Source: a virus (taxonomy: Duplodnaviria > Heunggongvirae > Uroviricota > Caudoviricetes). Taken from it: a DNA stretch of 41,595 bases. Position 1 is the first letter of the stretch. Every line of letters starts with the position of its first letter. Below are positions 25,657-28,619 of this stretch, piece after piece. A program made the translations under genes and the position numbers. The DNA lies in IMG/VR virus record IMGVR_UViG_2541047952_000001; one strand, given 5' to 3'. The notes under the pieces are model-generated. The model was given only the letters and a program-made list of their open reading frames with translations. It made no database searches and was not told where the DNA came from.

Positions 25657-26006
25657 TGGAGCCATACAGCCTCACACTCGATGAGGCCTGTCATTTTCTC
25701 AAGATATCCAGACCGACTGCCATTAACTGGATACGCACAGGGCGTCTTCAGGCAACACGCAAAGATCCCACTAAGAATAAATCTCCTTACCTCACAACAC
25801 GACAAGCCTGCATTGCGGCTCTTCAGTCTCCGCTGCATACTGTCCAGGTGAGCGCGGGTGATGGCATAACAGAGGAAAGAAAATGTCACTCTTCCGCAGA
25901 GGTGAAATATGGTACGCCAGTTTCACATTGCCGAACGGTAAAAGATTTAAACAGTCTCTTGGAACAAAGGACAAAAGGCAGGCGACAGAACTCCATGACA
26001 AGCTAA
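25656..26006 (+). CDS. excisionase (AlpA/Xis-type HTH)
   Basis: Start ATG 25656 ([36 protein letters not shown]), directly upstream of and overlapping int. The 3' extent is uncertain; the ORF-track start at 25572 is a rejected extension. Confidence 0.5.
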
Positions 26007-27046
26007 AGGCTGAAGCATGGCGGGTCAGCAAACTTGGTGAAATACCTGATATAACGTTCGAGGAAGCGTGTGTCAGGTGGCTTGAAGAGAAAGCACATAA
26101 AAAATCACTGGACGATGACAAAAGCCGGATCGGATTCTGGCTTCAACATTTCGCAGGAATGCAACTAAGAGACATTACTGAATCAAAAATTTATTCAGCA
26201 ATGCAGAAAATGACGAACCGGCGTCATGAGGAAAACTGGAAACTCAGGGCAGAAGCATGCAGAAAAAAAGGGAAACCTGTTCCAGAATACACGCCAAAAC
26301 CAGCGTCCGTTGCAACGAAGGCTACGCATCTTTCATTTATAAAGGCCCTACTAAGAGCCGCAGAGCGTGAATGGAAAATGCTGGATAAGGCACCAATTAT
26401 TAAAGTGCCTCAACCAAAGAATAAACGGATCCGCTGGCTGGAGCCCCATGAAGCACAAAGGCTGATTGATGAATGTCCGGAGCCATTAAAGTCTGTTGTT
26501 GAATTTGCACTGGCAACAGGCTTAAGACGCTCGAACATCATCAACCTTGAATGGCAACAAATAGATATGCAGCGCCGGGTGGCATGGATAAACCCGGAAG
26601 AGAGTAAATCAAACCGCGCAATTGGCGTTGCGCTGAATGATACTGCATGTCGCGTATTGAAAAAACAAATCGGGAATCATCACCGTTGGGTATTTGTGTA
26701 CAAGGAAAGCTGTACCAAACCAGACGGAACGAAAGCGCCAACAGTAAGGAAGATGCGGTATGACGCAAACACAGCCTGGAAAGCGGCGCTGAGACGGGCT
26801 GGTATTGATGATTTCAGATTTCACGACTTGAGACACACCTGGGCAAGTTGGCTGGTTCAAGCCGGAGTCCCGTTGTCAGTTTTACAGGAAATGGGAGGCT
26901 GGGAGTCTATCGAAATGGTTCGTCGATATGCTCACCTTGCACCTAATCACCTTACCGAACACGCACGGCAAATAGACTCGATCCTGAACCCATCGGTCCC
27001 AAATTTGTCCCAGTCAAAAAATAAGGAAGGTACTAATGATGTGTAA
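25883..27046 (+). CDS. int: tyrosine integrase (prophage, thrW-targeting)
   Basis: 387-aa [25 protein letters not shown]... with C-terminal catalytic-region motifs ([10 protein letters not shown]...RRYAHL); stops 15 nt before the thrW 3' fragment. Confidence 0.9.
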
Positions 27047-27060
27047 CTTATTGATTTTAA

Positions 27061-27109
27061 TGGTGCCGATAATAGGAGTCGAACCTACGACCTTCGCATT
27101 ACGAATGCG
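27061..27109 (-). tRNA. thrW: partial tRNA-Thr(CGU) thrW: 3' 49 nt only (attachment-site core), not an intact tRNA
   Basis: Reverse complement CGCATTCGTAATGCGAAGGTCGTAGGTTCGACTCCTATTATCGGCACCA matches the anticodon arm to CCA end of thrW as recalled; no D-arm or 5' acceptor strand upstream. Confidence 0.75.
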
Positions 27110-27293
27110 ATGTTAATGCATTTTTAACTACTTGAGCAATCAATCAAAACAACATACTTTATATTATAAAACACCAAGTTATAGCAATAAACCCGTTGAT
27201 TGAAATTAACAAAAGTTGATGTTTATTCCCTCCATTTACTTACACCAGCAGTTACATTATTGTAAGACAGCAATTCTCAACTGGAGCCGAAAA

Positions 27294-28619
27294 ATGGCGC
27301 TTTCAAGACAAAAATTTACCTTCGAAAGACTTCGCAGATTCACCTTACCGGAAGGGAAAAAACAAACTTTTCTTTGGGATGCAGATGTAACAACCCTGGC
27401 ATGCCGAGCAACTAGCGGAGCAAAAGCCTTTGTATTCCAAAGCGTATATGCGGGGAAAACCCTTCGCATGACTATTGGCAACATTAACGACTGGAAGATT
27501 GATGATGCGAGAGCCGAGGCAAGACGGTTACAAACATTGATCGATACAGGGATAGATCCACGAATTGCTAAGGCTGTAAAAATCGCAGAAGCAGAATCCC
27601 TGCAGGCAGAATCACGTAAAACAAAAGTGACTTTCTCCGTCGCCTGGGAAGACTATCTTCAAGAATTGAGAACCGGTATCAGTGCAAAAACTAAACGCCC
27701 ATATTCTACTCGATACATTGCCGATCACATTAACTTGTCCAGTCGTGGAGGCGAAAGTAAAAAAAGAGGCCAAGGCCCGACTTCGGCTGGACCATTGGCT
27801 AGTTTGCTCAACCTGCCGTTATCGGAGCTAACCCCAGATTACATAGCAGCGTGGCTGAGTACAGAAAGGCAAAATAGACCTACCGTCACTGCTCACGCTT
27901 ATCGCCTACTACGTGCTTTCATCAAATGGAGTAATTATCAGAAAAAATATCAAGGGATCATTCCTGGCGATCTGGCACAAGATTACAACGTAAGAAAAAT
28001 GGTTCCCGTGTCAGCGAGTAAAGCTGATGATTGCCTGCAAAAGGAACAACTAAAAAGCTGGTTTAGTGCCGTGCGTAGCCTCAATAATCCTATTGCATCG
28101 GCCTATCTCCAAGTACTTTTGCTCACTGGTGCTCGGCGTGAAGAAATTGCGTCGCTTCGCTGGTCAGACGTAGATTTCAAATGGTCAAGCATGCGAATTA
28201 AAGACAAGATCGAAGGTGAACGTATCATCCCTCTCACTCCTTATGTTTCTGAATTGTTAAATGTACTAGCGCAATCCCCAAATTCTGACGTAAATAAGGA
28301 GGGTTGGGTTTTCAGAAGTAACAGTAAAAGTGGCAAAATTATTGAGCCGCGTTCAGCGCACAACAGAGCGTTAGTGCTGGCTGAGTTACCACATATCAGC
28401 CTTCACGGTTTACGTCGTAGTTTTGGTACTTTGGCCGAGTGGGTTGAAGTTCCCACTGGTATTGTTGCTCAAATTATGGGACACAAACCCAGCGCTCTTG
28501 CCGAAAAACACTATCGCCGTCGTCCGTTAGATCTGTTACGAAAATGGCACGAGAAAATTGAGACATGGATCTTAAATGAAGCAGGTATTACCATAAAAAA
28601 CAACGTTGATATGCGTTGA
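27294..28619 (+). CDS. P4-type tyrosine integrase of a second integrative element (CP4-6 IntF-like)
   Basis: Preferred start MALSRQKFTFERLRRF at 27294 with GGAG RBS (track: 27216); C-terminal HGLRRSFGTLAEW...KHYRR catalytic-type motifs. Confidence 0.85.
   Translation: MALSRQKFTFERLRRFTLPEGKKQTFLWDADVTTLACRATSGAKAFVFQSVYAGKTLRMTIGNINDWKIDDARAEARRLQTLIDTGIDPRIAKAVKIAEAESLQAESRKTKVTFSVAWEDYLQELRTGISAKTKRPYSTRYIADHINLSSRGGESKKRGQGPTSAGPLASLLNLPLSELTPDYIAAWLSTERQNRPTVTAHAYRLLRAFIKWSNYQKKYQGIIPGDLAQDYNVRKMVPVSASKADDCLQKEQLKSWFSAVRSLNNPIASAYLQVLLLTGARREEIASLRWSDVDFKWSSMRIKDKIEGERIIPLTPYVSELLNVLAQSPNSDVNKEGWVFRSNSKSGKIIEPRSAHNRALVLAELPHISLHGLRRSFGTLAEWVEVPTGIVAQIMGHKPSALAEKHYRRRPLDLLRKWHEKIETWILNEAGITIKNNVDMR

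Follow-up and report, generated by a model that had tools for sequence, protein, structure and literature searches.

How a piece of a tRNA gene came to lie between two integrase genes is the question raised by positions 25,657 to 28,619 of IMG/VR virus record IMGVR_UViG_2541047952_000001, a 41,595-nucleotide (nt) stretch of Caudoviricetes DNA whose full length is referred to here as the window. At this place, the integrase gene int of a prophage, a 49-nt copy of the 3' end of the tRNA gene thrW, and the integrase gene intF of a second element follow one another. An initial annotation, made from the letters of the window alone, read the arrangement as tandem site-specific integration at one tRNA gene, with the fragment serving as a shared attachment (att) core. 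Our analysis leads to the same reading and puts names to the elements. Two unrelated integrative elements very probably stand in tandem at thrW, and a phage resembling SfV and SfIV most likely recombined into the thrW fragment that forms attR of the cryptic prophage CP4-6. The closest genome, NZ_CP062811.1 (strain Res13-Sevr-PER07-33), was used as a proxy for the source locus.

The minus-strand reading of window 27061..27109 is CGCATTCGTAATGCGAAGGTCGTAGGTTCGACTCCTATTATCGGCACCA. This sequence is identical to nt 28-76 of K-12 thrW, which specifies tRNA-Thr(CGU), and comprises the last 49 nt of the gene. The match would have lost its meaning had it broken down against the strain's own thrW, and in the closest genome 49/49 nt hold. 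For a 25-nt sub-pattern of the fragment, 0.00 chance matches are expected in the window. No further copy of the core was found within the 41.6 kb, where 27061..27109 is the sole copy, and ARAGORN detected no tRNA gene across the whole window. The absence of a tRNA 5' half was also borne out, as 27110..27137 is not thrW sequence, though it is compatible with a cloverleaf. The stop codon of int (27044-27046) is separated from the CCA end of the fragment by 14 intervening nt; the adjacency described by the initial annotation stands, and its distance of 15 nt reflects a counting convention. On the other side, 184 nt lie between the fragment and the likely start codon of intF (ATG 27294), in line with the approximately 180 nt given before.

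The fragment contains the attachment cores of both elements. The 46-nt block at 27061..27106 (minus strand) equals the core ATTCG...CACCA published for SfI, SfII, SfV, SfX, and P22, and the 46-nt core at both ends of the prophage is identical to that published sequence (PMC3636060). The full 49-nt block is the repeat that sets the limits of CP4-6 in the K-12 annotation (262898..297205). The two identity blocks differ slightly in length, 46 nt for the phage and 49 nt for CP4-6. Both start in the anticodon stem or loop, which places them in the anticodon-centered class of the Islander catalog (PMC4383910). Read on its own strand, the fragment is flanked on the left by the att arm of CP4-6 and on the right by the P' arm of the phage. 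As a hybrid, it serves both as attR of CP4-6 and as the int-proximal att of the prophage. Strand exchange presumably took place inside the shared core at the anticodon loop (27099..27105, minus strand), which we infer to be the exact point.

The initial annotation expected the intact thrW outside the window and proposed to look for it, and for a further core copy, in the flanking genome. Both were found in the proxy. In the orientation of the window, the proxy carries paoD, a yagP remnant, a 46-nt copy of the core, three cargo genes and the prophage, xis, int, the 49-nt copy, intF, the rest of CP4-6 up to ykfI, intact thrW, proA, and proB. The intact gene lies beside proA, 26.6 kb to the right of the fragment. 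The distal 46-nt copy, 40.5 kb to the left, closes the prophage on its far side, beside yagP (8022..8067 of the proxy excerpt L002). All three thrW-derived copies are on the same (minus) strand. Two complete genomes match the junction region at 100%; LD39-1, with a 100% junction match, likewise keeps thrW intact at the end of the array, but its prophage is truncated, which sets it apart from the source of the window. The proxy shows no mismatch to the window over 26508..41595 and 38 over 1..28008. Of these, 37 cluster at 602..2367 in tail assembly, tube, and sheath genes, in what looks like a recombination patch between otherwise identical prophages, and a single base (17658) differs in the other 39 kb. 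The DNA of the window would therefore come from a close relative of the proxy strain and not from that strain.

Exchanging flanks between the junction and the distal copy rebuilds both parental sites. The left flank of the distal copy, the core, and the right flank of the junction together are identical to SfIV attP at 368 of 371 nt. The reciprocal combination of junction left flank, core, and distal right flank agrees with the unoccupied CP4-6 attR-yagP sequence of K-12 at 440 of 450 nt. Directly 3' of CCA, the junction carries the phage version TTAAAATCAATAAG and the distal copy carries the chromosomal version TTTAAATCAAGTAG, a distribution of differences that fits strand exchange within the core. 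With a phage attP and a free attR recovered in this way, the proposal of tandem integration with the fragment as a shared core is upheld. All four features by which Islander and TIGER recognize tandem arrays are present, namely an intact tRNA gene at the end, co-oriented fragments, an integrase for each element, and uninterrupted reference sites. The locus shares with the arrays described by these programs its one intact tRNA gene (tDNA), its fragments in one orientation, and its one integrase per element (PMC4383910, PMC7192596).

A sequence of two insertions would account for this structure. In it, CP4-6, a decayed island, lies between intact thrW and a displaced 49-nt fragment, with IntF at the end far from the tRNA. 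Tyrosine integrases exchange strands in a short overlap within an identical core. Because the phage and the island each carry the 3' part of the tRNA, integration regenerates the tRNA gene at one end and displaces a fragment to the other. Later, the phage attP, whose 46-nt core is directly 3' of int, would have recombined with the displaced fragment and not with the intact gene. The exchange inside the shared core would have been catalyzed by the P22-type tyrosine integrase of the phage, and the second 46-nt fragment would mark the far end of the prophage, beside yagP. By a general rule already described, both regenerated cores are open to a second element (PMC7192596). Tandem lysogens of SfI and SfX at thrW were made experimentally (PMC3306764). 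There, the second phage used the site at the intact tRNA. The present phage used the distal fragment, and its integrase is unrelated in sequence to that of the other element.

As judged from sequence, the left element is an SfV/SfIV-like temperate myovirus, because its Int is 100% identical to that of SfIV, an open reading frame with a helix-turn-helix domain overlaps int, and 77% of window 1..25000 is matched by Shigella phage SfV at 97% identity. The prophage body (1..25655), delimited by the SfV match and the RefSeq annotation of NZ_CP062811.1, begins in the window within the tape-measure gene and continues with head, lysis, replication, immunity, and early-left genes. The prophage carries a complete module set. 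The excisionase gene xis (25656..26006, plus strand, 116 aa) overlaps the start of int and scored 35.1 bits with Pfam HTH_17. Its score with the NCBIfam "excise" domain was 25.8 bits, slightly below the cut-off. The SfIV open reading frame at the matching position, upstream of and overlapping int, is annotated as an excisionase, a likeness in position. The gene int (25883..27046, plus strand) encodes a P22/SfV-type tyrosine integrase of 387 aa (Pfam Phage_integrase, E = 3e-48). Over all 387 aa, it is 100% identical to the SfIV integrase, 99.5% to SfII, 99.2% to SfI, 98.5% to SfV, and about 90% to those of P22-like Salmonella phages. RefSeq starts int at TTG 25928 (372 aa); the Ints of SfIV, SfV, and P22 have 387 aa, corresponding to a start at ATG 25883, and the RefSeq call looks off.

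The module has the layout known from SfI, SfII, SfIV, SfV, SfX, and P22, with xis overlapping int, attP directly 3' of int, and an identical 46-nt core. SfV-type phages usually have gtrABC beside attP. The prophage differs from the serotype-converting Sf phages in this respect, as neither gtrABC nor oac is found in the attP-adjacent cargo of NZ_CP062811.1. That cargo, at the far prophage end outside the window (excerpt L002, 8403..12489), consists of genes for a 4-fold beta flower protein, a hypothetical protein, and a 629-aa DUF262 protein. Such cargo may be anti-phage or of another moron type. With cargo lacking gtr, the prophage is not a serotype converter of the gtr type, and its membership in this class of integration modules is unaffected.

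The right element corresponds, by its predicted genes and att arm, to the cryptic prophage CP4-6 of K-12, with 100% DNA identity to K-12 over 27110..27700. The CP4-6 att arm between core and intF (27110..27293) is likewise 100% identical to K-12. The gene intF (27294..28619, plus strand) encodes the tyrosine integrase of CP4-6, 441 aa from the ATG, identified by RefSeq name and Pfam. RefSeq calls a start at 27219 (466 aa). The start at 27294 is likelier, because GGAG lies 7 nt upstream, the Arm-DNA-binding domain follows just after, and this ATG is conserved in relatives. IntF contains Arm-DNA-bind_3 (PF13356, DUF4102; 42 bits) and Phage_integrase (PF00589, 62.8 bits), and its translation shows the motifs ARRE, HGLRRS, and KHY. 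The CP4-6 genes yagN, ykgV, yagM, and yagL follow at 28736..31095 (plus strand; RefSeq names in NZ_CP062811.1), and CP4-6 reaches to the end of the window. YkgV, with 74 aa and a Pfam HTH_17 match of 27.8 bits, is a candidate excisionase for IntF.

The order intF-yagN-ykgV-yagM-yagL and the bounding 49-nt thrW repeat are shared with CP4-6 of K-12. In K-12, the repeat is directly followed by yagP, whereas here a 40.5-kb prophage lies between them. The interior also differs from K-12 at about 31750..41595, where the RefSeq annotation gives IS1 copies. The same region encodes a Y-family DNA polymerase, accompanied by a truncated peptidase (umuDC-like), and contains a dgo-like galactonate cluster that includes an MFS transporter and a 2-hydroxyacid dehydrogenase. 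A literature search on the att sites of CP4-6 returned nothing specific.

Comparison of Int with IntF by BLASTP gave no significant similarity. The second integrase had been called P4-type, a label that holds for its domain architecture but not for its att geometry. IntF matches P4 Int weakly, at 27% identity over 129 aa (pairwise E = 5e-5), and P4 was not among the tblastn hits of IntF at E <= 1e-5 in the phage collection. As in satellite phage P4 at leuX, the att core lies about 150-200 nt upstream of the integrase start. The P4 core, however, is 20 nt long and on the same strand as int, whereas the IntF core is 49 nt long, starts at the anticodon stem, and is divergent from intF; a short core with the integrase beside the intact tRNA, as in P4, is not what is seen here. 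The core points away from intF, and as a result this gene occupies the end of CP4-6 opposite the tRNA. Relatives of IntF with 73-75% identity, in Citrobacter freundii M-21 and Winslowiella iniecta, adjoin a 3' fragment of tRNA-Arg(UCU) type and not of thrW. That fragment lies about 207 nt upstream of the integrase start and has the same element-borne CGCA directly 5' of the anticodon loop. The change of target that these relatives show within the IntF family is consistent with strand exchange at the anticodon loop.

The frequency of these arrangements was determined in 5426 complete E. coli genomes, many of which are clonal or laboratory derivatives. The segment proA-thrW-yagP was uninterrupted in 948 of them. 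An SfV-type int with its core was present in 1287, and in 58 of the best 60 of these it lay directly beside an intact tRNA-Thr gene. The prophage studied here differs from these 58, and from the Sf phages and P22, in occupying a displaced tRNA fragment and not intact thrW. The intF end of CP4-6 was found in 315 genomes, many of them K-12 laboratory derivatives. We had first assumed CP4-6 and intF to be near-universal in E. coli and dropped this assumption at 315/5426, a count that weakens the argument that the island is ancestral. The int-fragment-intF junction occurred in seven genomes, five at an identity of at least 99.5% and two as diverged alleles at 89.5%. The alternative junction, in which the phage P arm and core meet the ykfI flank of CP4-6 and the phage lies on the thrW side, occurred in 43. 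At 7 versus 43 genomes, the displaced fragment as a phage site is a recurrent minority outcome. An unoccupied CP4-6 attR contiguous with yagP is present in K-12 and in strain HS-01. Arrays of three elements were also seen, in ECONIH4 and NT1F10. The thrW array of ECONIH4 (NZ_CP026399.1, 2070000..2180000) begins with an intF-variant island that has an internal stop in its integrase gene and a sucrose operon, and continues with an SfV-like prophage and a CP4-6-like element adjoining a heat-resistance (clpK/LHR) locus.

The bases 3' of CCA contain a further motif. The sequence AATCAATAAGTTA at 27044..27056 (minus strand), in the phage P' arm, lies 4 nt beyond the CCA end in the 3' direction, where it shares bases with the int stop codon. 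It fits WATCAANNNNTTR perfectly, which we take to be the consensus of integration host factor (IHF), so that 27044..27056 is a putative IHF site by consensus match. The same WATCAANNNNTTR match recurs at every thrW-derived site (L003 near 27635, L002 near 8010, L004 near 2262, and L034 near 1510), including AATCAANNNNTTA 3' of thrW, also a putative IHF site. Only the four N positions vary, reading ATTG at attL of CP4-6, TAAG both in the P' arm of the phage and at the unoccupied attR of HS-01, GTAG at the far end of the prophage, and AGAG in K-12. In HS-01, the unoccupied CP4-6 attR (L034 1495..1520) carries the phage-type TTAAAATCAATAAGTTAC, followed by chromosomal sequence of the yagP side. 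This could be a standing polymorphism; alternatively, a phage may once have exchanged strands rightward of the canonical core and left this trace.

Several points weigh against the proposed history. The window itself contains one of the three att copies, and the others come from the proxy, whose 38 differences from the window all fall within the prophage and spare both the junction and CP4-6. The genome counts do not represent independent events, given the clonal and laboratory lineages among them, and the activity of either integrase in the strain is a prediction. Either order of insertion gives the same final structure, and the order of arrival is not readable from structure alone. Had the phage entered intact thrW first, a CP4-6-type element could then have entered the thrW regenerated beside int, which would have moved int, together with its copy of the core, farther from proA and produced the same int-fragment-intF junction. 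A reciprocal exchange in the core yields an identical end product on this route, and IntF-type elements do occur in arrays of several elements, with three in ECONIH4. We nevertheless regard this reverse order as unlikely. CP4-6 is here IS-ridden and rearranged. Its attL flank in the proxy (thrW-ykfI side, outside the window) is identical to K-12 over the stretch read, its attR side is 100% identical over 27110..27700, and both flanks point to one old insertion. K-12 and HS-01 also carry this CP4-6, with attR left free. The prophage keeps a complete module set at 97% identity to SfV, and only seven genomes share the junction. The population data favor arrival of CP4-6 before the phage, and so do three observations: the island is IS-ridden and shares its intF-side arm and ykfI-side flank with K-12, it occurs with a free attR elsewhere, and the prophage seems to be complete while few genomes have it here. 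RecA-dependent recombination between the 46-49-nt repeats of a different ancestral array, in place of integrase-mediated insertion, is exceedingly improbable. Arrays at thrW do offer several direct repeats of this length with imperfect homology beyond them, and the TAAG variant in the free attR of HS-01 could be the footprint of an exchange outside the canonical core. Recombination between direct repeats, however, deletes elements and cannot reorder them, a single reciprocal attP x attB exchange accounts exactly for the junctions, and an intact int-xis module of the right specificity lies at the junction.

A further alternative is that the fragment is part of a complete, if diverged or pseudo, tRNA gene, with a 5' half contributed by CP4-6 and a 3' part from thrW, in which case the statement that the 5' half is missing would be wrong. 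The Rfam tRNA model (RF00005) aligned full-length over 27064..27137 (minus strand) with 45.5 bits, above the gathering score of 29; real thrW scored 71.8 bits and the phage-flanked distal copy scored 14.2 bits. The 45.5 bits are due to the cloverleaf-compatible CP4-6 DNA that adjoins the fragment on its 5' side, 28 nt that supply a 4-bp D stem, five of seven acceptor pairs, U8, and A14. An equal pair count occurred in only 0.4-0.9% of shuffled or genomic flanks (null p 0.004-0.009). Against these figures, two positions of the acceptor stem are mismatched and two form G-U pairs, G18G19 are missing from the D loop, and the predicted fold reaches -15.5 kcal/mol versus -26.4 for thrW. ARAGORN found no Thr tRNA at thresholds down to 70%, and no tRNA is annotated at the site in the RefSeq records inspected, K-12 included. 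Relatives of IntF in eight other genera or metagenome-assembled genomes retain the arm motif without the acceptor pairing; they score 29-36 bits, mostly in local D-to-T-arm alignments. On this evidence, a full-length tRNA or pseudo-tRNA is very unlikely, and the candidate 27064..27137 was rejected as an intact or relic tRNA. The realignment that the initial annotation named as its possible refutation did not yield an intact tRNA at the junction.

We conclude that the flank is a conserved feature of the att arm, plausibly an IHF-like site with a core-type Int site, and not a tRNA 5' half. The tRNA-like flank (27110..27137, minus strand), defined by the Rfam alignment, carries the motif CTCAAGTAGTTA ... 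TAACAT-CGCA, which is kept in IntF relatives. At the 16 loci of such relatives examined in other Enterobacterales, the arm motif TTCAA-NNNN-TTR ... TAAC-N-T-CGCA was retained and the acceptor pairing was not. A search for direct or inverted repeats as arm-type sites in 27040..27300 (seed 7) found none. There is a slim chance that the CP4-6 arm with its tRNA-like 28 nt lets the fragment mimic the full thrW attB for an unrelated integrase of the SfV/P22 type. If so, att arms borne by one element would influence the sites of later arrivals, and hence which elements can be lost or mobilized together. On a related and likewise remote reading, the flank is the vestige of a tRNA gene once present in the attP of IntF-family elements. 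Scans with covariance models could mislabel attR of CP4-6 as a tRNA pseudogene.

Herein, the phenomenon and every component of it have been described before; the finding is ordinary and leaves current understanding unchallenged. Its value lies in detail. The apparently orphan 49-nt tRNA piece is a true att junction, so that the boundaries of both elements can be drawn to the base. Prophage callers that rely solely on intact tRNA genes as anchors will set the limits of this prophage wrongly. The locus offers a clean natural example of an SfV-type phage with a displaced tDNA fragment as its attB. The prophage may still be excisable: by recombining the fragment at the junction with the distal one, Int and Xis would free the phage and restore an attR of the K-12 type. 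IntF, perhaps with YkgV, acting on thrW and the junction would free CP4-6 and leave int beside thrW, and recombination of thrW with the distal copy would free both elements together. Excision of CP4-6 by IntF and excision of the phage by Int and Xis would each leave a different, predictable scar.

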